Assembly (NCBI GenBank): GCA_010093995.1
Contig: ML992543.1
Location: forward strand, 1-38,182
DNA length: 38,182 nt
From: Elsinoe ampelina
Lineage: Eukaryota
Direction of reading: 5' to 3'
Under the pieces are notes generated by a model that saw only the letters and a program-made list of their open reading frames with translations, was not told the origin of the DNA and searched no databases. Both the position numbers and the translations under genes were made by a program. Positions within the stretch are counted from its first letter, which is position 1; the number at the start of each line of letters is the position of its first letter. This document shows, in pieces, positions 7,971 through 28,062 of the stretch.

Positions 7971-10871
7971 ATGGATGTAAATGCGGTGCTCGAAGGGACT
8001 CTGTCTCCAAGTGAGCCTCAACGAATATTGCTCCTTCAAGCCTTTCACTAATATCTTCCCAGATGCCGAGACCAGAAAGAGCGCCGAACAGCAGCTGAAC
8101 ACTGCCGCCGAAGCTGATTTCGTATGTTTCCCCCCTTGTGTCCTTTTCCCGAGATGCCTATACAGATTGCTGACACGCCCACGCGCAGGCCGGCTACCTC
8201 ACCCGCCTATCCCAAGAACTCGCAAACGACAGTGCACAATCTCAAGTCCGGATAGCCGCAGGTCTCGCGCTCAAAAACTCATTCTCCGCTCGCGAGTACA
8301 ACAGACTTCAACAGGTCCAACTAAGATGGATCGAGCAGGTCGACGTCGGGATCAAGCAAGAAGTGAAATCTCTGGCGCTCAAGACACTCTCCTCCAACGA
8401 TTCAAGAGCCGGACAGTCAGCTGCACAATTCATCGCTGCCATCGCAGCTATTGAGATACCCCGCAACCAGTGGCCGGAGCTCATGCCCAGCTTGGTTCAA
8501 AACGTCGGCAACGGTGCAGACCATCAAAAGCAGGCTTCCCTGACCACCATTGGTTTCATTTGCGAGACGGACGATATAGACCTCCGCGAGAAGTTGACGG
8601 AGCATTCCAACGCCATCCTTACAGCCGTGGTACAGGGTGCACGCAAAGAGGAGCCAAACCAAGATGTCCGAAATGCCGCCATCACTGCGCTTGGGGACTC
8701 GTTGGAGTTTGTCAGGAGCAACTTTGAGAACGAAGGAGAGCGCAATTACATTATGCAGGTCATTTGCGAGGCGACACAGGCACCAGACAACCACATCCAG
8801 CAGGGCGCGTATGGCTGCTTGAATAGGATTATGGGACTTTACTATGACAAGATGAGATTCTACATGGAGAAGGCACTTTTCGGTCTTACGATTCAAGGCA
8901 TGAAGAATGATGAAGAGGATGTCGCCAAGCTTGCTGTGGAGTTTTGGTGCACAGTCTGCGAGGAGGAGATCTCGATAGAGGATGACAACTCGCAGGTCAG
9001 TCAAGTGCGGCGAGGGCATTTTGAACCCTTCACTGATAGGTTACAGGCCCAAGCGGAAGGTTCCACAGAGATGAGGGAGTACTTCAACTTTGCTCGCGTG
9101 GCGACTCAAGAAGTTGTCCCTGTGCTTCTGGAACTTCTGGCTAAGCAGGACGAAGATGCCACTGACGACGAATACAACCTTTCCCGTGCGGCCTACCAGT
9201 GTCTTCAGCTCTGGTCTCAGGCCGTAGGCAGCACCGCAGTGCCAGCCGTCCTACAATTCGTCGAGAAGAACCTGCGCTCGGAAGACTGGCGCTACAGGGA
9301 TGCCGCTGTATCTGCTTTTGGCGCTATCATGGAGGGACCCGACGAGAAGGTCCTCGATCCACTTGTCAAGCAGGCTCTGCCAGTGCTTATCAGCATGATG
9401 GAAGATCCAGTCGTCCAGGTCAAGGACTCTGCAGCTTATGCCCTCGGCCGCATTTGCGAAGCCGTCTCCGACTCGATCGACCCACAAACACATCTCCAGC
9501 CCCTCATCAGCAGTCTTTTCACCGGTCTCTCAAGTCATCCCAGAATGGCATCTTCTTGCTGCTGGGCCTTGATGAACTTGGCTGATCGATTTGCGGGTGA
9601 ACCAGGGTGCCAGACAAACCCTCTGTCTCCACACTTCCAGGCCAGTGTTACGCATCTCTTGCAGGTCACCGAGTCGACTACAGACGGTTCTCTTCGCACT
9701 GCTGCTTACGAGGTTCTGAACGCTTTTGTTACGAATTCAGCTGTGGACAGCCTTCAATTCGTCGCCTCGCTTTCCGACGTCGTCCTCGGCCGCCTCGAGC
9801 AGACCATTCCCATGCAGCAACAGGTTGTGAGCGTCGAAGACCGTCTTCAGCTCGAAGATATCCAGACCAGCTTGACCAGCGTTGTCATGGCCATCATCCA
9901 AAGACTCGAGGCTGAGATCAAGCCGCAGTCTGACAGGATTATGAATTTGCTCCTGCAAATTCTCAGCACCGTAGGCGGCAAATCGTCAGTACCCGATACC
10001 GTCTTTGCTACCGTCGGCGCCCTGGCAAATGCGATCGAGGAGGACTTTGTCAAATACATGGACCCGTTCTCAAATTACCTCTACAACGCACTCGGCAACC
10101 AGGAAGAACCCGCCATCTGCGCCATGGCTATTGGACTTGTCAGCGATATCAGCAGAGCTCTGAACGAGAAGATCCAGCCATACTGTGATGCACTGATGAA
10201 CTACCTGCTTAACAACTTGCGAGTAAGTGCTCAACCACTTTACATGGCGGCTGAAATCGAGGTATTCTAACATGATTTTAGTCTGCAACTCTTGGCAACC
10301 AATTCAAACCGGCCATTCTCCAATGTTTCGGCGATATCGCTCAGGCTATCGGTGGCGCATTCGAGACTTATCTCTCGGTCGTCGCGCAGGTGCTCCAGCA
10401 AGCCGCATCCATTACCGTTCCTGACACATCGTACGACATGCTCGACTATGTTGTCAGTCTTCGTGAAGGTATCATGGATGCTTGGGGCGGCGCTATCATG
10501 GCCATGCGTTCCGGAAACAAGAGTGAGTCGACACCGAAAGCCACAGAAAGCATTACTGACGTTTCTCAGCAAATCTACTCCAGCCTTACGTCGAGTCCAT
10601 CTTCCAGCTCCTGCAGACAATCGCCCAAGACCACAACAAGTCCGAGGCCCTGCTCCGCGCCAGCATGGGTGTCATTGGCGACATCTCCGAGGCTTTCCCT
10701 AATGGCGAGTACAGCCAATACTTCCGTCAGGACTACCTCACTGCAATGGCTCGCGAGACTCGCAGCAACAAGGACTATTCACCACGTACGACGGAGACAG
10801 CTCGATGGGCTCGAGAGCAGATCAAACGCCAGACTGCCGCTCCTGCTGGCACTGGTGTGATGACGAACTAG
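7971..10871 (+). CDS. KAP95: Importin subunit beta-1; join(7971..8010,8063..8121,8189..8995,9047..10222,10282..10522,10570..10871), 874 aa
   Basis: The spliced product starts MDVNAVLEGTLSPNAETRKSAEQQL. It contains AAGLALKN, ERNYIMQVICE, AVEFWCTVCEEE, DWRYRDAAVSAFG and KPAILQCFGDIA. All five introns are GT-AG with branch-like sites and the frame is preserved. Confidence 0.95.
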
Positions 10872-14087: not shown

Positions 14088-17000
14088 CTACACATTCTCC
14101 GATCCCTCTTTGCTCTGCTCTTCCTTCCTAGTCGTGGATCGACCAGCCAATTCCGAGGCACGTCTCCACCATTTGTTCTTGTGTACTGTCTCACGCCGCT
14201 TGAAATTTGCCAACACACTCAGTATCGACTCTACCTTGAACGCAAAGACAAGCAACGGCACTACAACAGCCGCGGACATGGCGACTGATCATGTCAGCAG
14301 GTGGGATCTGGACAATCTGGAGGATCGGAATGCTAGCTTACATATGTACGTCGCCACAAAGCCCAGACTCAAGCTGCCATCGCGGCGGGGAAACTCTGCA
14401 ATGTCGAGATCAAAGAAAGACGCCATGAATGAGAGGGGAAGCTGGGGACTGGATTAGCACGATGAGAGTCTCCCGCCTACAAGGAGGCCGATCGAAGGTG
14501 CTGCTTACGAAGACTATCGTCACGGCGGTAAACACCATGAGCGTATTCGACTGCTTAGCCGCTTCGCGGGCGAGCTCGCGCTGCGCTCTGGCCTCGTCCT
14601 TGGCTGAGCGGGACTCCAGCAAGTTATTCATCTTCTGCTTAAGGTCGAGGAGATGGTTGAGCTATGTCGGACAAGAGATGAGCGGAGAATGGGCCTACTC
14701 GGGAAAGTCAAATTACTCACCATTGAATCAGTATCATTAGCATCGCGACACATTTGCTGGGCTGTTGAGAGGCATGATTTTACCTGCTCGACGTAACGCG
14801 GAGTGTAACCTTCAGGGAATCCATCTAGTACAGACAGCTGGTCCCGGCAGATAACGATGAGGGTCCCGAGCTCGTCGCGAACATCCTGGATTTGACGCTG
14901 GAGTTCGACTTCTTCTACAATACTGATGCTTCCTGGATCGAGTCCCTTCTCCTGCTGTTGTTCCATATCGGCGACTTGAAGGGCGAAACCTCGGAAGCAT
15001 TCTGCGTTTCGATCGGCCTGTTTAGTACGGTCAGTGGAGCTGTCAATGACCCTCTGGAGTCGCTTACGATTCTTCGAATTTCATTTTGATAGCACTCGAG
15101 GACATCGAGCTCAGGCGCTGGTGGCCGTTTCGGGTTGAAGAGGGCGGAGACACAGTCCTCTATTATAAGATCGCGCAAGTCGTAGATATCATCGACTGTG
15201 GGTAAGCGGCGAACGACATTGTTCAACACGTCTGTAATAGCTCGTTCCGAGGGCTCTCCCTTTGTTCCAATACTCCAGCGCTCAGGAAAGCAAGTGAGGA
15301 CGCACCTGTCGTCCAACTTCCACAGCCATAACTGATCGACCATCAATAATGGTGTATCTGTAAGTGGTGGATCTCGTTTGTGGAGGCGAGTAAGTGTCTG
15401 ATCATTGTCGCGGGTCGTGATGTCTCGCAGAGAGTAGTAGCGATACTGGTCCAGGGTGCAACGAAAATGGAGCGGGTTGTGTTCGGCGGCGTTGAGATAT
15501 TCATTTGCCAACACCGCGTACCTATCCGATGCCTGGACTGATGAAGAATTTCGATGTCCAGCAGCGATATATCCAAGAGCGTTTTCAATACAGTGTTTCA
15601 TCCTCAAAAATTCGGTGGTCGTCTCCCAATGCACGTATGGTACCTGGGCCTGTCAGATCGAAGCCCAGGCATTGCTCAAGCTCATCTCACACATAGCGCG
15701 CTTGATAGGAATGCATGTTGCGTTCCCTCGTCGTCCCATCTGGGACGTAACGGTGCAGTCGAGTCCCGAGAAGTCGCTCTACGGCTGCTGTGCCACTTGT
15801 CGCCGGGAAGCAAATCTGATCGCTTGACTGTCTGATGGAGCCTTTCGTACTGCAAAAGGAGGATCTATATGAGTCAGCTGTAGTGCGCATAACGGCTTGG
15901 GCGTACATCACCTCCACCCATGACATCTAGATTGAGGTCAGTATTATCTCAAAATCCAAAAAAAAAACCATTGATAGGTGACTCACGTTGTTCATTGGCA
16001 GGTGTATCCACGCGAAGTCCCTGCCACCGGTGTCTTGATTGACAGCTCTTAGGAACTCCGTTGAAAGGATTTGATCAACATTGACTTCCACCTTTTGACT
16101 AAATTCAGAGCCGTCGAATCGTGCTACAATACCCTTAAACAACCCGTCGACTTTCGTGGAGTGCAGGATAGGGGAGTCCCTCAACCTAGGATTTGCCTCC
16201 TCTGCTGCACGTAAGAGATGTACGGCCATGGCGTGTCCGGTTTCTAAGTTCCTCTGTCCACTCTGATACTTCCCTCCCTGATGGGTCTCAGCCAGCTGCC
16301 GTGCTGTCTGCCCATTCACGTTGCGTGTCCAGATATTGGGTTGTGCAGTTAGCAGAACGCTTATAGCACCATCCTTGCCGCTGGCAGCGGCCGCGTGCAG
16401 TGCAGTCTCCGACTTGTTATTGATTTGGTCCACGGGAGCTCGCCGCTGGAGTAATTCGTGGACTATCGAGACATGCCCCGCATAGGCAGCGAGATGTAGT
16501 GCTGTGTTCCCTTCTTCGTCCTTGAGATACGGTATCATGCCATGATCCAGCAGTAGACATAGTACCTCCCTATGACCCGCCGTTGCAGCCAGATGTAAGG
16601 CCTTCTTCTCGCTTTGTATAGTGTCCTTAGTCATGAGGCGCAAACAGTGCTCGACCAAGACTTTCAAATCAAGATAGCAAGCTACTCTGATCCTGCTGTA
16701 TTCCAGACTTGGAGGCAGAGGCAGGGGATTATGGCCAGCATATACGCTGAACCATAGCCAGAAAATCGGTTCGTCAGGTTGACAGAGCACTCGACATTGA
16801 TTCAGTAGATCGGATGCACTCTCAGCACTTTGAATGTGCGCAACCCATTGAGTAGCAGCATAGGAAAGGAAAGGCCAGCGCACCAGATAGTCGCGGACTA
16901 GCGCCGTTGAACCCGTAAAGGTCCCATTGAAAGAATGCCGGATGTTCTCAGTATCATTTGACAGCTCGACTGATAGCAAGTAATCTGTACAAATACGTGC

Positions 17001-18716
17001 CATGGTCCGATGAAGGGTGTGAGCGCTCTTGGGGAGGCCCGGACATTGATAGTTGCCAAAAAGAAAATCGCGTACTGAATCATTCGCCAATTGGACCCCT
17101 TGATCGTGACGGGAGATGAACGTTTGATCAAGGATGTCAAGAGCCCTATGACAATCGAAAGATCCGGTGTTTTCCCGTTCGACAATTATCTGAAGCTCCA
17201 TCGCAGTCAATGGCCGTTTAGCCACTGCAACGAACCCCAGCAGTTGTCTCGCTTGATCACTCAGCTGCTTCCATCGTCCGTTCAGTGTGAACGTCCGGTA
17301 TAATTCACTACGAATGATTGAGTCGAGCGAATCCTCCGTGGAGCTCTGCTCGATCACGTCCAACATACCTTTAGCAGAAGCGAAAGACCCTCCAGCGTTG
17401 TCGACAACTTGTGCTCTGAGTTCTGCAGTCTGCGCAATCGTCAAGTGCTGTTTCAGAACAATTTGACGCATACGCATGTCGAGTAATTCCTCCAATGCCG
17501 AAGTGGTAGCCTGTTCGACGTCGACACTAGTACACGCCCGACTCTCGCCAACAATCTCTTCCACAGGTCCCAGTAATGGACATAAAAGAAGAAGTTTGAC
17601 TTTCCCGGCTGGTAACGCACTCATCTTGATGATTTTCATCAATTCAGCTCTGACACCTCCGAGTTGGTATTGCGATGCTGCCTCTGGTTCGAGCTGAGAT
17701 CCCAGGTTGAGGAAGCAGAAGACCCTCTTCTCCCGGATGACCTCGAAAGCTCGAGCTAGGCACGTTTCTGCTCCCATCGTGATGTCAAGATCATTTAAGC
17801 GGTGATCAGGGTCTTGCTCGACTAGCTGGAGCAGCAGCTGCCACATTACAATGTTCTCATAGCGTCCAGCTCCGTCGAGATGGGTCAAGTATGACGTGAC
17901 CTGGTAGTCTTGTAGCAGGTCTCCAGCCAGGAAGTGCGCTAGCGACTGCAAACTACTATCAGTACCGCCAGACAACACCAGAATCTCGGGCGTCGTCGCT
18001 CTGGTCCAATCGAGGTACTGGTCGGTGGACAAGATCCAAGACCAAGTATCAGACTCAGTGGCCATAGTAATTGCCTTCCTACTTGGATTCGGGATTTTCC
18101 GCCGTAATGCACGAAGCATCTCGGCCCGTCTGACATTTGGTTCTGGTCCGTCCAGTGAGCTATCTGAGCTATCTGAAGGGGGACCCATTGGCCGAGGGAC
18201 TGTCTTGGGGTCGTAAGGATTGACGGATTGGCTCGTAGAGGGATGATGTGGGAGACGATCTCTGACCCACGAGATCCTGTCTGCGTCTTGGGTGCCATTT
18301 TGCGTGAGGTGGTGTCGATATCGAGGTCGAGCATGAACCAGTGCTCGATCGGAAAACTGAGGGCCGATGAACTCCTTCCCGGTGGAACTCAGAGGAAGAT
18401 AAAGTGATGAAGCCCTCCGACGACTACCAAAGGTGGCGCGACGTTGAACAGGCCGTACTGTTCGATCCAGAAATTCCGTGGACGAATAGCTGCCTGGACT
18501 GGACCTCCTTGGCATGTAAGAATAGTCCATTGCCGCAGGCTGATGCTCTGACTCGTTCGAGCTATTGTCGCTGCGGTGCAGCAAACCTTCCGATCTCAAA
18601 TCGTGCCCTTCATGGCGATCTTGCGTGCTGTTTCTGGAATAAGCGCTGTGGCGAATGCGCCGATAGACGACGTCGTCCTCGGCACCACTACTATTCCTAA
18701 TCCAATCAATTGACAT
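14088..18716 (-). CDS. Degenerate NACHT-like + ankyrin-repeat + CorA-like (2-TM) protein; complement(join(14088..14284,14342..14441,14509..14661,14721..15017,15068..15643,15691..15864,15912..15926,15987..18716)), ~1413 aa
   Basis: Seven 47-67-nt GT-AG introns join the ORF pieces in frame. NACHT-region motifs: WILSTDQYLDW, VAVAKRPLTAMEL, PFLSYAATQWVAH. Ankyrins: ALHLAATAGH, GNTALHLAAYAGH, ETALHAAAASGK, GQTARQLA. Fungal CorA-like motifs: WIHLPMNNMSWVE, PYVHWET, TLDQY, LMVDQLWLW, LLDLKQK, VFTAVTIVFLPLSF. The start codon and the intron-2 donor (GTGATG) are less certain. Confidence 0.85.
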
Positions 18717-19315
18717 GCTACGTCGTCGACGTTGTGTTTGTTCTCTGGCTATGTGACAATCATTGTTGATTCGGAGTCAAGAATTCCCTCCATGTGTGAG
18801 GATTGAAATCAGAGGATGCTTCTCAGCCGCAGCTGAAGGCACACAGCTGAGCTCAAGTAGTGTGACACCTCATTGGGCGGACCAGATGCAGTAGCTCATC
18901 GGTAGCATCTCCAGGCAGGTCTGTGTGGCCATATTGGTCTATGGCTTGGCTACAGAACATCGCACGTTGATTGATAAGGCCGTGTGCGAGTGAAAGTAAG
19001 TGGGATGAATTAACATGAATGCAGCGGGAAGGCTGGCGACAACCGGTCCAGAAATCAACACACGGTATCTGTGCTTTCGACATCCTTCTCCGCTGACGTA
19101 AGAGCCTTTCAGAATGCAATGAAGGTGTATGTACGTGCATCTCCGCAAGTTTATCTGATACTGTCTGCTGTCACTCTGGCTGTCGTCGCGATGCCCACCA
19201 GATCTCAACTTCGAGCTGACCCGATCTAGCCGCGAGGGACGGTCGTGCAGCTGCGAACGAGACTTCGTCCCTGCACATTCCGATTGCCCTGGAGTAAATC
19301 CACACACCTACGGAC

Positions 19316-21143: not shown

Positions 21144-23370
21144 TTACGCCTCCGCAGCTCCGTAAGCGCTTACACCAGTCCACCACCACCACCGTCCTTC
21201 ACCATGCGCCCACACCCTCCCCAGCTCACGCCGCGCCTCTTCAGCCTGATCCACCTCATCAATCTCTCTAGCTTCCTCGACCTCCTCGATCTCCTCAACG
21301 CCCTCCCAATCCCCGTCCCCCACAAAACTCCACCCCCCGTTTTCAGCCTCATCCATGCCAAGCATATCCTCAAACCCATTCACCAACCCTGTGCTCACAT
21401 TAGTCTCACCCTCCACCACCTCATATTTCGCCAGTATACTCACTGATCCCAATCTCCCCCGCCTCCTCCCCCTCCCTCCCATACACCCACAGCGCCACCA
21501 CCCCCTTCCCCCTAAGCCTACACTGCGCCGCCCCCGCCCCCGCCAACATGGTCAACTCAACATTCCCCAACACCCCCCTCACATCCGCCCAATGCAACGG
21601 ATCGATAACATTAACCCCCTCTCCCTCCTCCAAGCCGACCAAGTCGACCAGGCGGTCGTAATCCAGCGTCGCGTGGTCGGTCATGATGTCTTGATTCGAG
21701 AGGATGGTTTTGGAGACGGAGCTTAGGCCGGCGCCGGAGGGGTCGAGAGCGAGGCGCGTGATGATGAGGCGGTAGGAGGCCGGGGTTTTGGAGAGGAGAG
21801 GGAGGTAGGGGTGGGAGGGGAGGAAGGAGTAGGGGTCTGAGACGGGGTGGAGAGGGGGCGGGAGGCCGAAGGTGGTATCGTAGGTCGGAGATGGGGGCGG
21901 GGTGGGCGTCGTGGCGGGGGCGATGCTGGGGGTCGTGTTGGTGGCGTTCTCGGTGCGGGGCTCAGGGGCTGTCACGTAGTAAGGCACAGGGTTTGGGTCG
22001 GGGGGAGGGTCGGTGGGGGAGGCGATGGTGTATCTTGGGACTTCTGCGGGAATGAAGTTCGTGGTCGGGTTGTCGGTGGGTATGGTGGTGAATGTTGGTC
22101 CGTTCCCAGTTGTGAAGCTTCTGTTTGGTATTTCGGATGCAGGTCTGGAGGTGATGAGTGAGTCGTTGGCGGATACGACGGTGTTTTTCGGCGCAAGTGC
22201 TGGCGTGGAGCCTGTGGTGGATGCGGTGTCAGGTCCTGGGCGCGTCCTTGGACATTGTCTAGCAGCAGGCTGGGCATTGTAGGCGGTCCAAGACCCAGAC
22301 GTGTACACATACTTCTGACCAGTACTCTCCCCAGTGTAATCGTCTGAGAAAGATCCCAAAGGTGGAGCTCTGCCCAGCTTGGTGCTGGGGCTTGTGATGA
22401 CCTCCGCAGTAGAAGTATCGGCTGCCGTCTTATCCGTAGCTTTGCCACTCTCGTGATTCGTCTCGGTGCCGCGCTTGGTGCCCGTCCTGTCGATAGGTAC
22501 ACGACTCGACTTCGTGATAGTGGCGACGTGAGGAGAAGTCGATGTCTTCCCCTTGACCGCGCGGGCCGTGTCGAAGCGAGACTTTGACTCTTGAACGACA
22601 GAGCTGCTTGGTCCTGGTATGACTTTGGTAGAGTTATCGATGCCATCTCCGCGTGCCTTACGTGATACGATCCCAGCAACGCTACTTCTTGTACGCCTGG
22701 CGGGTGGTCCCTCCTCTGGTGCGACACCATCGATCTCCCCGATACCGAATCGCTTGCGCTTCTGAGTTGTCATCTTGAAGGCAGAATCTCCAGCTTCCCC
22801 GGCGTCTGCGACAGGATCTTCGTCCTCAGTAGTCGGTGTGGAGGTCTTGACCTTCGGCTTCTTTGCGTTAGAAGCATTCTTGTCCCTGTGCTCCTTGGTG
22901 TATCCCTCAGCGATGAGACGCTGGACAGCAGATGCGAGATTGATATATGCGCTGGGGGAGAAAGCGCACTGGTCGAAGAAGGTCGGCTTCTGCGTGCCTT
23001 TCCAGCCGTTCATGACTGCGGTGTGGAGCTCGGTATGGCGACCGCTGATGATGTTGTGCTCGAGCTGGAAACGCGCCGTTTTGCCGTTGTTGCTGTATGC
23101 TAGGTATCCTTGGAGATCCGACTTGCCCTCGAGCTCCTCCCAAATGTCGCGGAGGGCGGTGTGGATGAGCTTGGCGACAGCGGCGAATGCTTCGTGAGGT
23201 TGACCGATAGTCCAATTGAAGAATTTGGCAAAGAACATGGCGTTGGGCTTGTGCTTGTCGCGGTCTTGCTTGAGGACTTCTCTGACTTCTTGGAGTGTCC
23301 ACGTGCTGACGTCGCGTTTGATGAAGTCGCGTGAATTCCAATCACGAGGAAGCTTCGTATCGCCAGCCAT
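21144..23370 (-). CDS. Uncharacterised two-domain protein, paralog A; complement(join(21144..21388,21444..23370)), ~723 aa
   Basis: A 649-codon ORF plus a 55-nt intron (GTGAGT...ACTAAT...CAG, 21389..21443) that joins an acidic last exon in frame. Folded-looking N and C domains flank an S/T/P-rich linker with NLS-like KKPKVK and KRKR. Confidence 0.8.
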
Positions 23371-23926
23371 GATAGCGGCGTGTGACTGATGCTGTATATG
23401 CCTCAGATGTGGTAGAGGCGCTGAGACGGCAGATGATGATGGAACTGGTCGAGGGTGTGTTTATTGTTTGCTGGAGGAGGTGATAGAAAGTGATGGGAAG
23501 TAGTTGGAGATGTAATTGATCAAGGTGCGACACGGTGCATCTTGACATGAGCCAGTCATATGCAAGATGGTAGTAAAGCAGGTAACCGAGGGAGCGGTAG
23601 ACGTGGTTCGACCCGAGCTGTCGGGTCCATCTCAAACGCCACCAGACAAAGGCATTCTTAAGGTTTGGAGCACTTGATCTCAGTGGTCAAAGAAACATGG
23701 AGAGAATACCTACCTTCTTGTAAACACAGAACAAAGAGAAACTATATCATTCAAAGACTGTTCGCTTGCTCATGTTAATCATAAGGGGTATCTATCATAG
23801 CTCAACTGCGGCCGACTCCCAGGATATCCGTGACGCCAGGTTAGCCATTATGCCCACTATTCAATGTTCCTCCCCGGTCAGTCTTGTACACTAACTTGCA
23901 GTTGAAATACGCTCAGCCCGAGTCTG

Positions 23927-24511
23927 CTATTCCCTCAGCCGCTGAATGACCTGTGGCAAGCCGTTCGCGATGATGCGATTGCGAATTGTAGTCCACATCT
24001 CAAATCCCTTAATCCGATTACCAGGCCAAGAATGTAGTGTACGCACGGCGCCCCGACGACGACCACGACACGCAGACTGCATATTCGGTCCGACTATCGC
24101 GTCGACTTGAGCCAGACTGATGAGAACCCAGCTGAAAGACTCCACGTCCATTTGTTCCAGCTGTCGATCCAGATGCCACCAAACCGTGTCATGACGAGCC
24201 CGTGTAGTGGCCCAGCCTGCGCGACGAAAGGCTTGCACCACTCTGGTATATGCCGTCAGGATGTCGTGATACTCTGCAGGGAAGTCCTGAGTCCTAAACC
24301 TGTACGACGGCTCGAATTGGCCTGCACGCGAGGCTAAAAATAGCGTCTCACTGACAACTCTCCGACTTTGCTCCGAGGAGTAATTGTCGCTACGACGCCG
24401 CTGTGCCTGATTCGCTCGATGTCGGAGAGTACGTCTAGAAGGAGAACTGCCGAACTCCTCCTCCTCAATTACTGGGTCTTCTTCAATTGTTGCAGTGTCG
24501 GCGTAGAAATC
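23927..24511 (-). other. 194-codon open frame immediately after, and in frame with, the SPT20 stop codon
   Basis: Manual translation of 24511..24242 has no stop and no ATG and runs into the listed ORF 23927..24241: DFYADTATIEEDPVIEEEEFGSSPSRR...VVQAFRRAGW...QVIQRLRE*. Confidence 0.6.
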
Positions 24512-27328
24512 CTACATTCCTCGCCCATGACTCTGATTCAGCGCATTCTGCATCGAAGCGAAATGCTGACTCAAATCACCGCCGCCCGCCTGCTGCTGAG
24601 CCTGCTGTTGTGCCTGCTGCTGCATTCGAGCTTGCATCTGTTGCATTTGTTGCATGTTCATACCGCCGCCCATGCCATTCATGCCTCGCCCCATCCCATT
24701 CATACCTTGCATACCCTGCATACCGTTCATGCCTTGCATGCCGTTCATGTTCATCATGTTTTGATTCATCATGCCTTGCATGTTTTGCATGTTCTGCATG
24801 TTCATACCCTGCATGCCTTGCATATTCATCTGTCCATTTTGCTGGCTCATGCGAGCCATCATGGCTTGTTGGGTACGGAGGTTGCGCATGTACGTCTCTT
24901 GATCGCTAGGGTCGCCGAGGGCTTGAGTCTGCTGGACGGCTGCCTGTTGTGCTCGCATTGTCATTTGCTGCTGCTTAGCAAGGTACTGCTGATTGTTCTG
25001 TTGCATAATCTGCGCCTTGAGTTGTGCAGGCACTTGGCCACCATTTTGGGCTGCAGCAGCCTGAAGCTGCATGTTCAGTTGAGCTTGTTGCTGAGCACGA
25101 GCACGAGCAGCCAGCATCTGCTGCTGCGTCATCTGTTGATTTGGCTGAGGTGTTGGTGTCCCGACAGATGGATTCTGGGATGCACTGCGTACCATTGCCT
25201 CCCCGCCATGAGGCGCCTGCGCTTGAGCTTGAGTTTGAGCATGGGCTTGAGCTTGAGCCTGGGCCTGAGCATGAGCTGCGCGTTGTCGGAGAAGATTGAG
25301 CTGGTTCATCTGAGCCTGGAAGGCTTGAGGAGTAATGTTCCCAGTTTGTGCTTGCATCTGTAGATTCTGCATCCTTGCTTGAATCTGCTCCGCGGTGATT
25401 TGTTGTCCGCCATTCTGCATTTGCTGTTGCTGCATCATTTGGCGTTGCTGTTGCTGTTGCTGTTGACGTAGATGCATCACTTGCTGTGGCGTCAAATTTG
25501 GCTGTTGATTCATCTGAGGAGTCGACATATTCATCATGTTGGTGTTTGGTGTGCTCTGAATATTGGCCGCTGGACTTCCATGATTCATGCGGGGAGTTGC
25601 AGACATTTGACGATCCACACTCATCGGCATGGATGACGCCATGTGAGGAGTAGCTGCGGTCATGCCAGGTGTGTTATTTCTACTTGGATGTTGTTGTTGA
25701 CTGACTTGTCTTGCCATACCGGCTTGATGCATGGCGGACGATGGTCTCGGCGGGCTTCCAGCTGCCCCTTGATTCGAAGCTGTAGCCTGCATAGGGAACC
25801 CACCATTCATACTGGCGTTGGCGACCATCGGTGACGAGTTCATCATTGGGGTCTGGTTCCTGACGATTGGCGAAGAGTGGTTCATAGCCGCTTGCTGTTG
25901 AATAGCTTGTTGTTGTGGGTTCTGTGCAAGACCATTCATCTGTTGCATCTGGTTCTGCATCTGTTGTTGCTTTTGTTGGTTGAGCTGTTGCTGCCTCAAC
26001 ATCATCTGCTGTTGCTGAGCAGCGTGTTGACTCGCAGCAGTCTTGCGTTGCTCTTCCATCAACTTGCGCTTGCGAAGCATCTCAGCCTCGTGCTCTCGCT
26101 TGGCCAGCGTAGCTTGATGCTCTTCCTCCTTTCGTTGCCTCTCCTTTTCCTCGTGGCGTTGCTTGATAGTCTCGAGCGTCTTGAACTTGGTGAAGCCGAG
26201 TTGAGCAGTCCCGTTTTGCCCTTCGGCTGCTGCATCCGTCCCGACAGATGGCTTGACACGTTCGTCGAGGATGAGCATTCTCTGCTCTTCTCTTGCCACC
26301 TGCGCGTCATCCGCCGCCATATCGGCCTGCGTTCGTTTCCTGGTCTGCGTTGAAGTAGGCGCGTGAGAATGGAGGGGATGCTCTAGTGCGTCAAGAATGT
26401 TTCGTGCTTCGTCGGCGTCCTTTGCAGGTTCTAGTATCAATGGCGGCTCTGTAGCCAGTAGGTAGTCGGCTTCGAATGTGTAGAAGTCACTCTCCTCCAG
26501 CAGCATCTTGACTGGTTTGTTGCCAGCCCGAGCTCCTCCAGGGGTCGATGGTACAGGTGTTGATGAGCTTGTAGGAGTCATGGCTTCTCTAGTAGCAGAT
26601 GCCTTTCGCGCCTTCGTGTCTGGTAGAGGGACCGTGGACAGCCACATCATCTCGCTATGCCTGCTCAGATCCGTAGGATGAAGGACGATAGTAAAGATTT
26701 GAGCATCAGCGCCCTTCTTCTGCTTCGGTTCCGGCGCAGGCATGTCATGTTTATCCTTCTTCTCCTTCTCGGTTTCTTCAGTGTCGGGCGAGAGCTTCTG
26801 CTTCTTGTTCGCTGGCTCCTCCTGCTTGTCCGGGAATGGCGCATACGGAGATGGCGTGATGTGCTCATTGTACTTGTGGAGAGAAAACGTCTTCTCCGAG
26901 TCCGGCTCCTGCTCGTTCTTCTTCTGTGCCTTGACCTCTTGCGTTCTATGGTTGTGTACCTCCACGATCAAGCAGCCGTCGTAGAAAGGCACACCGGCCT
27001 TGAGGAATTCTTCGACCAATTCGTGTGGGATCGTTTCTTTTTGCAAGTGTTCGACGAAAGTGCGCATCTCCGACTTGTAAGAAAAGGTCCCTTCTTGCTG
27101 GTCGAACCTGAAGAAGGTGGGATGCAGATGCACCTTCAAAGAAGGCTTCTTGCCGCGAAACTTCTTGAGTATGTATCCAGTAGTGCGAACACATGGCTCA
27201 TTGAGGGACCGCGCACTCCAGTCATCGTCCTCTCCAGTCAAACTTGCTTTGTACGTGTTCCGGGTCGAGATGGAGGGTCGCGGTCGGCGGATTGCCTGGG
27301 TCGGTTTTGCTATTGTCGCGGTCGCCAT
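24512..27328 (-). CDS. SPT20: SAGA complex subunit Spt20 (938 aa) with Q/M/N-rich low-complexity C-terminus
   Basis: The Spt20 domain is recognisable: YILKKFRGKKPSLKVHLHPTFFRF, IPHELVEEF, FYDGCLIVEVHNHR, IVLHPT, LLATEPPLILEP. A poly-Q/GMN-repeat tail follows. Confidence 0.92.
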   Translation of the reverse strand: MATATIAKPTQAIRRPRPSISTRNTYKASLTGEDDDWSARSLNEPCVRTTGYILKKFRGKKPSLKVHLHPTFFRFDQQEGTFSYKSEMRTFVEHLQKETIPHELVEEFLKAGVPFYDGCLIVEVHNHRTQEVKAQKKNEQEPDSEKTFSLHKYNEHITPSPYAPFPDKQEEPANKKQKLSPDTEETEKEKKDKHDMPAPEPKQKKGADAQIFTIVLHPTDLSRHSEMMWLSTVPLPDTKARKASATREAMTPTSSSTPVPSTPGGARAGNKPVKMLLEESDFYTFEADYLLATEPPLILEPAKDADEARNILDALEHPLHSHAPTSTQTRKRTQADMAADDAQVAREEQRMLILDERVKPSVGTDAAAEGQNGTAQLGFTKFKTLETIKQRHEEKERQRKEEEHQATLAKREHEAEMLRKRKLMEEQRKTAASQHAAQQQQMMLRQQQLNQQKQQQMQNQMQQMNGLAQNPQQQAIQQQAAMNHSSPIVRNQTPMMNSSPMVANASMNGGFPMQATASNQGAAGSPPRPSSAMHQAGMARQVSQQQHPSRNNTPGMTAATPHMASSMPMSVDRQMSATPRMNHGSPAANIQSTPNTNMMNMSTPQMNQQPNLTPQQVMHLRQQQQQQQRQMMQQQQMQNGGQQITAEQIQARMQNLQMQAQTGNITPQAFQAQMNQLNLLRQRAAHAQAQAQAQAHAQTQAQAQAPHGGEAMVRSASQNPSVGTPTPQPNQQMTQQQMLAARARAQQQAQLNMQLQAAAAQNGGQVPAQLKAQIMQQNNQQYLAKQQQMTMRAQQAAVQQTQALGDPSDQETYMRNLRTQQAMMARMSQQNGQMNMQGMQGMNMQNMQNMQGMMNQNMMNMNGMQGMNGMQGMQGMNGMGRGMNGMGGGMNMQQMQQMQARMQQQAQQQAQQQAGGGDLSQHFASMQNALNQSHGRGM

Positions 27329-28062
27329 GACAGGCCAGTTTGGGGATCAAACGGATCGCGTCGAGTGATCAAGTAATATACATGTTGAAAGAAAGAAGGC
27401 GACAACAATCTGAGTTTGTCCGAGGCGCGGATGAGTCTTGTGGTTTTTGCGCTGCCGTCCGAGTACACAACTGACGTTGGTCGATCCAACCATCGAGCTT
27501 GGCATGAAGATCACGTGAGCACGTCTCCAGTTCGTGGTGGATTTCACTCTTGCCCTGCGTTTGAGCATTGGGGGGCCTGGCTGATCAGGATTCACAGGAT
27601 TGCTTGACATTCGAAGAACGGCCTCACTAGTAAAGTGATCAAGTAATGAAAATGTCTTCGGTATTGTACATGAAATGCCATTCAACGCTAGAAGGGACAT
27701 CCAATGATGCCCATGAAGTGCTCGCTATTGAAAGAAAAGGTCCGTAGATCGATGACTGAAATCCAGCTCCGCCATCCTCAAGGGACCCGATGCATTGCTT
27801 TCCTGGCCCACGATCTTTCCTAAAAAGCGTAGACAAGCCAGTCCGCCGTCATGCAAGAACAGCCATGCGGCTACCGCGCTCATCCTTTCAAAAACTCTCG
27901 TTCTGAGTGCGTGATTCCTCCATCGCAGAATCGATGTGCTGGTGCATTACCCAGTCCGCATTTCCGAGATTATCCTTTCGTTTCATCCATCTTCCGTCAA
28001 GTCACCCCATCCTGAACTCCCCTAGATTTGATGAAAATTACAAAACTGGCTATGCATCGTCA

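Follow-up and report, generated by a model that had tools for sequence, protein, structure and literature searches.

A hairpin-presented UAG at the end of SPT20 in Elsinoe ampelina and the 194-codon open frame behind it: a candidate for conditional stop bypass

The SPT20 gene of Elsinoe ampelina, which encodes a core subunit of the SAGA co-activator, ends in a UAG codon behind which the same reading frame stays open for another 194 codons. We propose, at a probability of about 0.45 and from sequence comparison, that this UAG is conditionally bypassed, through adenosine-to-inosine (A-to-I)-like stop-loss editing or through readthrough, and that the bypass would add a weakly constrained, lineage-specific tail to Spt20. 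The stretch analyzed, hereafter the window, comprises 38,182 nucleotides (nt) of assembly GCA_010093995.1 (contig ML992543.1, positions 1 to 38,182, forward strand), and all positions without a locus name refer to it.

The gene upstream of the open frame is a regular SPT20. Its frame runs from stop to stop for 944 codons on the minus strand (27346..24512), with the first methionine at 27328, and the 938-residue product combines a SEP domain with a tail rich in glutamine and methionine; Pfam places Spt20_SEP (PF12090) at residues 65–319, with 139.9 bits against a gathering cut-off of 27.1 (E 9e-41). The 3' end of the gene reads GGA ATG TAG, with the TAG at 24514..24512 and an RNA context of AUG UAG GAU UUC, and the frame then continues from 24511 to 23930 before it is closed by a second TAG at 23929..23927. 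An earlier note on this DNA had described this arrangement from the letters alone, together with the lack of an ATG in the first ~120 codons of the extension, and both points are borne out by sequence and translation, the first methionine of the extension being codon 121. The features concerned, all on the minus strand, are the following.

27329..27437, minus strand: 5' leader of the SPT20 transcript contig, which reaches 27437, the first methionine being at 27328
24515..27328, minus strand: Spt20 coding sequence, 938 amino acids in an uninterrupted frame, identified by translation, PF12090, 73% identity to Elsinoe australis and strain comparison
24512..24514, minus strand: SPT20 stop TAG, next base G, conserved in position among relatives and kept in the contigs of all four sequencing runs
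24500..24525, minus strand: predicted RNA hairpin whose loop, GUAGG, presents the UAG, from fold energy against shuffles and with the same hairpin in an 81-nt fold
23930..24511, minus strand: in-frame open extension of 194 codons without known family, from translation, homology searches, strains and codon usage
23927..23929, minus strand: second in-frame stop TAG, which closes the extension, from sequence and translation
23785..23926, minus strand: trailer of 142 nt between the second stop and 23785, where the transcript contig stops, which is no proof of polyadenylation

At the local stop rate of 0.040–0.044 per codon, the chance of 194 open codons is ~2–3e-4 per gene, which is rare for one window, although a scan of very large size should turn up such a case occasionally. 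The GC content is 0.53–0.55 across the extension, as against 0.47 in the spacer behind it. The claim that the other genes of the window stop within ~35 codons of their ends holds for seven of the nine other long open reading frames (ORFs), which meet an in-frame stop within 32 codons; it fails for the remaining two, which run on for 79 and 143 codons. These are the ORFs at 8174–10270 (plus strand; 143 codons open after TAA) and 15927–18776 (minus strand; 79 codons after TAG), and both are probably cases of exons running into introns.

The stop itself lies, as judged from alignment with related proteins, at the ancestral end of Spt20. The nearest proteins come from Elsinoe australis (73% identity), Sphaceloma murrayae (72%), Myriangium duriaei (60%) and an unnamed Dothideomycete (52%), and by these similarities the host is a Dothideomycete close to Elsinoe and Sphaceloma (Myriangiales-like) and not a relative of Fusarium or Neurospora. 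All five of the closest aligned relatives finish within a few columns of the ...GM terminus of the window Spt20, with full-length similarity that includes the C-terminal end. Among the 212 relatives recovered at E <= 1e-10, the best 120 were examined; 58 of these carry an F..M..AL-type motif in their last 60 residues, 5–36 residues before the end, and none carries a tail resembling the 194 residues. Because the relatives end at the same conserved place, the TAG represents the ancestral terminus and not a recent nonsense mutation, an alternative raised in the earlier note that is thereby ruled out. A separate polymorphism was seen within the glutamine-rich part of SPT20, where two of the sequencing runs described below (X3 and X4) carry a 6-nt insertion, GTTGCT on the plus strand, at 25443 in a perfect hexamer repeat, an in-frame length difference between strains.

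The identity of the stop codon, and not only its position, appears to be maintained. A profile scan returned 46 metagenomic loci with Spt20 relatives, and in 19 distinct loci the C-terminus could be placed with known relatives' tails as tblastn queries, after exclusion of six duplicates with identical DNA and three contig run-offs. The resulting 20 sequences (the window and 19 loci) include 10 confident ends (the window and nine loci with a tail identity of at least 80%), the other 10, placed at 35–52% identity in low-complexity tails, being less sure. SPT20 ends in TAG in 16 of the 20 (TAA in two, TGA in two) and in all 10 with confident ends, and the base after the TAG is G in 13 of the 16. 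By comparison, TAG closes 9 of 51 other ORFs of at least 300 codons in the same loci (Fisher P 1.6e-6), and the excess persists when lineages are collapsed by our own grouping (11 of 15, P 1e-4). Open runs of at least 50 codons follow the stop in frame in 9 of the 20 sequences (304, 194, 113, 108, 101+, 97, 62+, 55 and 53 codons), as against 5 of 40 in the two other frames (P 0.007), or 7 of 18 against 4 of 36 (P 0.02) if a trio of related species discussed below is counted once. The longest of these runs, the 304 in-frame codons behind the SPT20 TAG at L002:3580–4494, encodes a globular-looking, non-repetitive peptide without a Pfam family or similarity to the other loci, and it may be a neighboring gene that chances to lie in frame.

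The window UAG is predicted to be presented in the loop of an RNA hairpin (24500–24525) with 10 base pairs, one bulge and a 5-nt loop, GUAGG. The hairpin has a folding energy of -12 kcal/mol and a z-score of -3.57, with none of 200 shuffles as stable, for a 30-nt segment that was chosen after the 81-nt fold had been seen; the 81-nt fold retains the hairpin, with a z-score of its own of only -0.95. The sole difference between strains in the stem (24521) replaces an A-U by a G-U pair, as paired by eye. When the relatives were folded over positions -30 to +32 around the stop, with hairpin loops of up to 8 nt counted and shuffled flanks as the null, the A of the stop fell in such a loop in 9 of the 16 TAG sequences (4.3 expected, P 0.012), or in 7 of 14 (3.6 expected, P 0.043) with the trio counted once; other nearby TAG triplets lie in such loops in 48 of 175 cases. 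The surroundings of the stop also fit the fungal editing motif, with U at -1, the preference named in the earlier note, and G at both +1 and +2, of which only the G at +2 is informative, the rest holding for any UAG.

In Fusarium graminearum, A-to-I editing favors sites with U at -1 (86%), with A or G at +1 and with G at +2; 62% of the edited sites lie in hairpin loops, and 323 genes have an edited UAG stop (PMC4817773). A 2026 study lists 403 stop-loss-edited genes and shows that stop editing of FgDBF2 adds a disordered tail of 24 amino acids and lowers protein dosage; stop-loss extensions show little conservation, and 94% of Sordariomycete DBF2 genes retain the TAG (PMC13123824). The same study records a stop-loss site with 13% editing in SPT7 (FG3G23900; supplementary file 2, row 296), demonstrating stop-loss editing of another core subunit of SAGA in a fungus that edits. 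By name, its stop-loss table holds no Spt20 or SAGA entry, and unnamed annotations could hide one; a literature search linking Spt20 with stop-loss or A-to-I editing likewise returned nothing.

Transcripts appear to reach the extension. Of five listed sequencing runs, all of unrecorded kind ("RNA?"), four (X1–X4) were compared with the window in the form of contigs, which drop minority variants. One X1 contig of 3667 nt is colinear with 27437..23785 without a single difference, the repeat at 25209–25279 being skipped in the alignment, and it takes in the 5' leader, the complete SPT20 gene with its TAG, the entire extension and a further 142 nt past the second stop. A loose end of 13 letters begins at 27437 in this contig, which we take to be sequencing adapter. 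Neighboring X1 contigs differ widely in depth (3.7, 211.9, 6.4, 74.8 and 537.3), and the run leaves 21936–23573 and 27438–27679 without cover; because of these uneven depths and uncovered stretches, X1 looks like RNA. The contig is the only one that spans the stop, and it contains no joint within 23785..27437, so that at least a part of the transcripts continue into the extension and are not spliced around the TAG; a contig proves neither a single molecule nor a true end. Measured to 23785, the 3' untranslated region (UTR) would be 727 nt long from the first TAG and 142 nt from the second.

The other three runs (X2–X4) belong to a different study filed under the same organism code and, with 40 listed differences from the window, provide a second strain. 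They cover 168 of the 194 extension codons (24007–24511), across which the frame stays open with 26 substitutions in 505 nt and neither an indel nor a new stop; 18 of the substitutions are supported by three runs, four by two runs and four by X4 alone (depth 3.6). The Spt20 coding sequence shows 14 differences in ~2381 covered nt (summed over contig pieces), 13 of them at synonymous third positions. The ratio of synonymous to nonsynonymous changes is hence 13:1 in the gene and 12:14 in the extension (P 0.004), and the densities of differences are likewise distinct (P 2e-11). The 12 synonymous changes of the extension compare with 8.3 expected from random placement of the same change types (P 0.08), corresponding to a ratio of nonsynonymous to synonymous rates (omega) of ~0.55 by arithmetic from the strain counts. 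A dN/dS below 1, which the earlier note had called for, thus does not reach significance between the strains. Random placement of the 26 substitutions leaves the frame open in 29% of trials, and the first 75 nt after the TAG are unchanged (P 0.02). Taken together, the strain data suggest a constraint on the extension far weaker than that on Spt20 and compatible with weak purifying selection or with neutrality, the absence of indels and stops mildly favoring a kept frame.

Divergence between the strains is patchy. It amounts to ~5% over 24007–~24900, a segment that takes in the extension and, at synonymous sites, the last 370 nt of SPT20, and it is zero over ~26785–27437 and in 354 nt of the 3' region of the neighboring gene (27647–28000). 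This pattern suggests mosaic haplotypes or very uneven constraint, and because divergence is patchy, part of the high rate in the extension may be a haplotype effect. Hyper-editing was rejected as the origin of the strain differences, which involve all four transition types at full depth in three runs, with only 3 of the 26 being T-to-C on the plus strand, as was mutation resembling repeat-induced point mutation, there being no one-directional C-to-T bias.

A coding signal behind the stop comes from three related species among the metagenomic loci (L007, L010 and L012; SPT20 synonymous divergence 0.65–0.77), whose SPT20 stops lie at L007:7854, L010:7839 and L012:3194. This trio carries homologous in-frame extensions of 108, 113 and 101+ codons with 64–70% amino-acid identity, conserved from the first codon after the TAG, the first methionine common to all three being at column 44. 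The three indels in the extension measure 6, 9 and 6 nt, all multiples of three, and the L007 and L010 extensions terminate at the same column. Identity falls from 0.849 in the coding sequence to 0.765 in the extension; the two 150-nt blocks that follow have values of 0.608 and 0.67, with gaps of 11, 3, 1, 5 and of 7, 2, 15, 35 nt. Omega is 0.31, 0.42 and 0.68 in the extension, as against 0.08–0.12 in SPT20, and the differences between L007 and L010 are spread over codon positions as 15/24/38 (P 0.005). The +1 and +2 frames contain 3–6 stops each, except for one L010 frame with none. These observations give moderate support to the view that the trio's sequence immediately past this TAG evolves like protein-coding sequence read in frame with SPT20. 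Each of the three members can form pairs between the arms that flank its TAG on either side, and the two differences in L012 preserve these pairs, as read by eye. Of the stop and the open frame whose conservation in relatives the earlier note proposed to check, the TAG is retained in 16 of 20 sequences and a coding-like frame is seen in one trio; the extension is not conserved across lineages.

The composition of the window extension points in a similar direction. Scored against the long ORFs of the window, its codon usage reaches -0.022, as against -0.141 (sd 0.047) for stop-free frames simulated from the non-ORF composition of the window (P 0.004) and 0.133 (sd 0.11) for real coding segments of 194 codons, 6% of which score below the extension. 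The codon usage of the extension is hence intermediate between coding and non-coding sequence.

In the bypass model, the 194 codons would belong to the SPT20 mRNA, and the conserved ...GM terminus would still be where the majority of Spt20 molecules stop. The hairpin-loop UAG, in the context U-A-G-G, matches the preference of fungal editing of the ADAT (adenosine deaminase acting on tRNA) type, which would convert UAG into UGG (Trp), with ordinary ribosomal readthrough of the UAG as the other possible route; within this model we somewhat favor an editing-like route, because it is TAG specifically that is kept. A stage-specific or small fraction of Spt20 would then carry a lineage-specific, probably helical or disordered tail, whose role, by analogy with FgDbf2, would more probably lie in adjusting stability or dosage than in supplying a conserved domain. 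The more specific proposition that the hairpin-presented, conserved UAG of Dothideomycete SPT20 is edited A-to-I at some stage, partly switching the Spt20 pool to a fast-evolving tail of 194 amino acids, we regard as unlikely, if worth stating. The isoform by editing or readthrough that the earlier note suggested thus finds agreement in the stop context, the hairpin, the transcript contig and the open frame; it finds none in mismatches within the contigs or in conservation across lineages.

Several lines of evidence weigh against bypass. There is no direct sign of it, the contigs of all four runs reading TAG at 24512–24514; the A-to-G change that editing predicts at 24513 (T to C on the plus strand) appears in none of them, in contigs that hide minority variants, and the nature of every run is a guess. 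In the available portions of the literature searched, no report of A-to-I mRNA editing in Dothideomycetes was found; such editing is reported for Sordariomycetes and Pyronema and not in Leotiomycetes, with independent origins argued, and one editing paper mentions Dothideomycetes, in the part available, solely in an ortholog comparison. Editing requires Tad2-Tad3 together with Ame1, an interaction that arose in Sordariomycetes. The host lies outside the lineages of the Fusarium and Neurospora precedent invoked in the earlier note. The stop also lies outside known leaky contexts, efficient fungal readthrough using UGA followed by CU, with substitution by UAG lowering readthrough in Ustilago (PMC4207609). 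That UAG-G is no classic leaky context had been recognized from the start, and UAG GAU UUC does not fit the leaky pattern. In plant viruses, the leaky stop context is UAG CAR YYA.

The peptide itself adds to these doubts. The acidic stretch, basic linker and aromatic-rich helices that the earlier note read in it match the translation and an all-helical AlphaFold model, which was computed from the single sequence and has six helices with a mean predicted local distance difference test (pLDDT) score of only 48.8. The extension matches no Pfam family at E up to 1, and word-indexed searches against proteins of similar and greater length gave no matches. A phmmer search of 1.84 billion representatives returned two matches (E 9e-5 and 3.7e-4), to a 5818-residue repeat protein and a 1453-residue protein rich in lysine and glutamate, both rejected as compositional and spurious, and no homologue beyond these two. 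No annotated or predicted protein in the collections searched resembles the extension, those of the E. australis and S. murrayae proteomes included, the best tblastn match among the 46 metagenomic Spt20 loci has an E of 3.0, and exact look-up of Spt20, the extension and the product with TAG read as Trp found none of the three in the protein collection. Recognition by the ESM Atlas (1912) lies within the range of shuffled sequences, and an Atlas suggestion of a ribonucleotide reductase small subunit (0.91) was rejected, with no match to PF00268 at E up to 1; shuffled proteins reach such Atlas scores 4–10 times in 100. An origin in a repeat or transposon was rejected, with no other copy of the extension in the window. 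The extensions of different lineages are unrelated to that of the window or to each other, and Pfam places none of six relatives' extensions above cut-off (the best row being DUF1580, 16.3 bits against 24.4). Selection is equally indistinct: 14 of the 26 strain differences in the extension alter a residue, in two cases to proline, the excess of synonymous changes falls short of significance (P 0.08–0.11), the spread over codon positions (4/10/12) has a P of 0.14 with the two other frames scoring about equally, and the three-way codon-position bias in the trio is weak (24/27/40, P 0.09).

The main rival explanation, which we judge somewhat less probable than bypass, is that the extension is part of a long, untranslated 3' UTR, open by chance in the SPT20 frame and nearly neutral, with the TAG and its hairpin serving another role, such as in mRNA stability, localization or termination efficiency. 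The excess of strain divergence over the coding sequence, the residue-altering half of the changes without a significant measure of constraint, and the lack of homologue, family, confident fold and Atlas recognition are all natural in untranslated sequence; a chance of ~3e-4 per gene ensures that a very large scan will meet such cases, and open runs of 121, 116 and 174 codons occur in the wrong frame right after the SPT20 stops of three metagenomic loci. Moreover, the excess of long in-frame runs does not beat a conservative null, that of the other ORFs of at least 300 codons in the same loci, many of them probably internal exons (9 of 20 against 12 of 51, P 0.07; P 0.17 with the trio counted once). 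An untranslated extension would nevertheless have to keep its frame open against odds of 29% and take up 26 substitutions without an indel, where the non-coding stretch past the relatives' extensions shows ~1 indel per ten substitutions by our own ratio. It would also leave unexplained the codon usage above the non-coding null, the in-frame indels of the trio with their conservation edge at the extension stop, and the retention of TAG in 16 of 20 sequences, for which a 3' UTR alone gives no reason.

The coding-like composition could also reflect an independent small gene, intact or decaying, that follows SPT20 on the same strand and happens to share its frame, with a start of its own (at Met 121 or at a non-AUG codon) or untranslated. 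A higher GC content than the spacer, the codon score, the fact that a contig spanning two genes does not prove a single transcript, and the 304-codon run of L002, which could be just such a neighbor, are compatible with this idea. We nevertheless consider it quite improbable: the frame opens at the SPT20 stop itself and has no methionine in its first 120 codons, so that a start near its 5' end is missing; the first 75 nt behind that stop are the least variable; no similar annotated or predicted protein, and no homologue elsewhere, was found in the searches above; and a decaying remnant should show indels and stops, of which the second strain has none. It is less credible still that alternative splicing excises the TAG and so makes the extension a second C-terminal exon of SPT20; a small remainder of probability is assigned to none of these readings. 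By the splice-site consensus, the GTAGGA at the stop loosely resembles a 5' splice site and TAG/G a 3' splice site. The sole contig spanning the site, being colinear with the DNA, lends no support to the alternative splicing that the earlier note had considered, an intron from the nearest upstream GT to the TAG (68 nt) would put the sequence behind it out of frame, with a stop ~10 codons on, no in-frame GT codon occurs within the last 25 codons, and the trio, which has the best coding signal, reads CAATAGGG, without a GT at that place.

Two further observations concern the neighborhood of the gene. An ORF of 679 codons on the minus strand (21421–23460) is mostly uncovered in all four runs (21936–23573), with the genes on either side covered; it may be silent under the conditions sampled, a hole in contig cover proving nothing. 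In addition, a 3797-nt X1 contig (depth 212) touches the window only at 21275–21296 and 21453–21475, in C/T-rich pieces of 22–23 nt with 952 other letters between them in the contig, most likely a chance match to a C/T-rich repeat family (D1) and not a real joint.

If bypass of the SPT20 stop is real, its unusual aspects would be the length of the tail, carried by a core SAGA subunit, and a host class beyond the known range of fungal mRNA editing, which has so far been tied to Sordariomycetes and Pyronema, with its origin debated. Editing at this site would then be the first indication that stop-loss mRNA editing of the ADAT type occurs beyond the Sordariomycetes and Pezizomycetes, and on a core subunit of SAGA, with a tail that changes the stability or the partners of Spt20. 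Spt20 holds the SAGA co-activator together, and an extended isoform could hence alter transcription programs at a life stage. The generality of stop-loss adaptation is reportedly disputed in a comment and its reply. Among the new points, the conserved TAG of Dothideomycete SPT20 in its hairpin lends itself best to testing, as a concrete single site at which to look for editing or programmed readthrough in one more large class of plant-associated fungi; should bypass be disproved, the case would stand as a warning that a 194-codon run open in a ~5% diverged strain can be untranslated 3' UTR.

A protein-coding signature downstream of the annotated stop has served to find readthrough candidates in mammals (PMC4132726) and, reportedly, in Drosophila. 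These cases resemble the present one in the kind of evidence (a conserved stop, an open frame, in-frame indels and a conservation edge), which comes together here only in the trio; they differ in resting on many genomes and, in part, on reporter confirmation, as against three metagenomic contigs and a window extension without an alignable relative. The peroxisomal isoforms that fungi and animals generate by programmed UGA CUA readthrough (PMC4207609) share with SPT20 an extension behind a conserved stop and the logic of a dual isoform. They differ in that the stop here is UAG-G and that the QRLRE end of the extension does not look like a tripeptide of the peroxisomal targeting signal 1 (PTS1). 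The stop-loss sites of FgDBF2, FgMOB1 and FgCDC14 have extensions of 11–27 codons, as against 194 here, and belong to a host other than a Dothideomycete. On the other hand, these sites share with SPT20 the same UAG, with U at -1, G at +1 and +2 and a predicted hairpin loop, and in stop-loss of the FgDBF2 type, as here, the in-frame extension is little conserved beyond close relatives, with a TAG that is conserved as a stop type across species.

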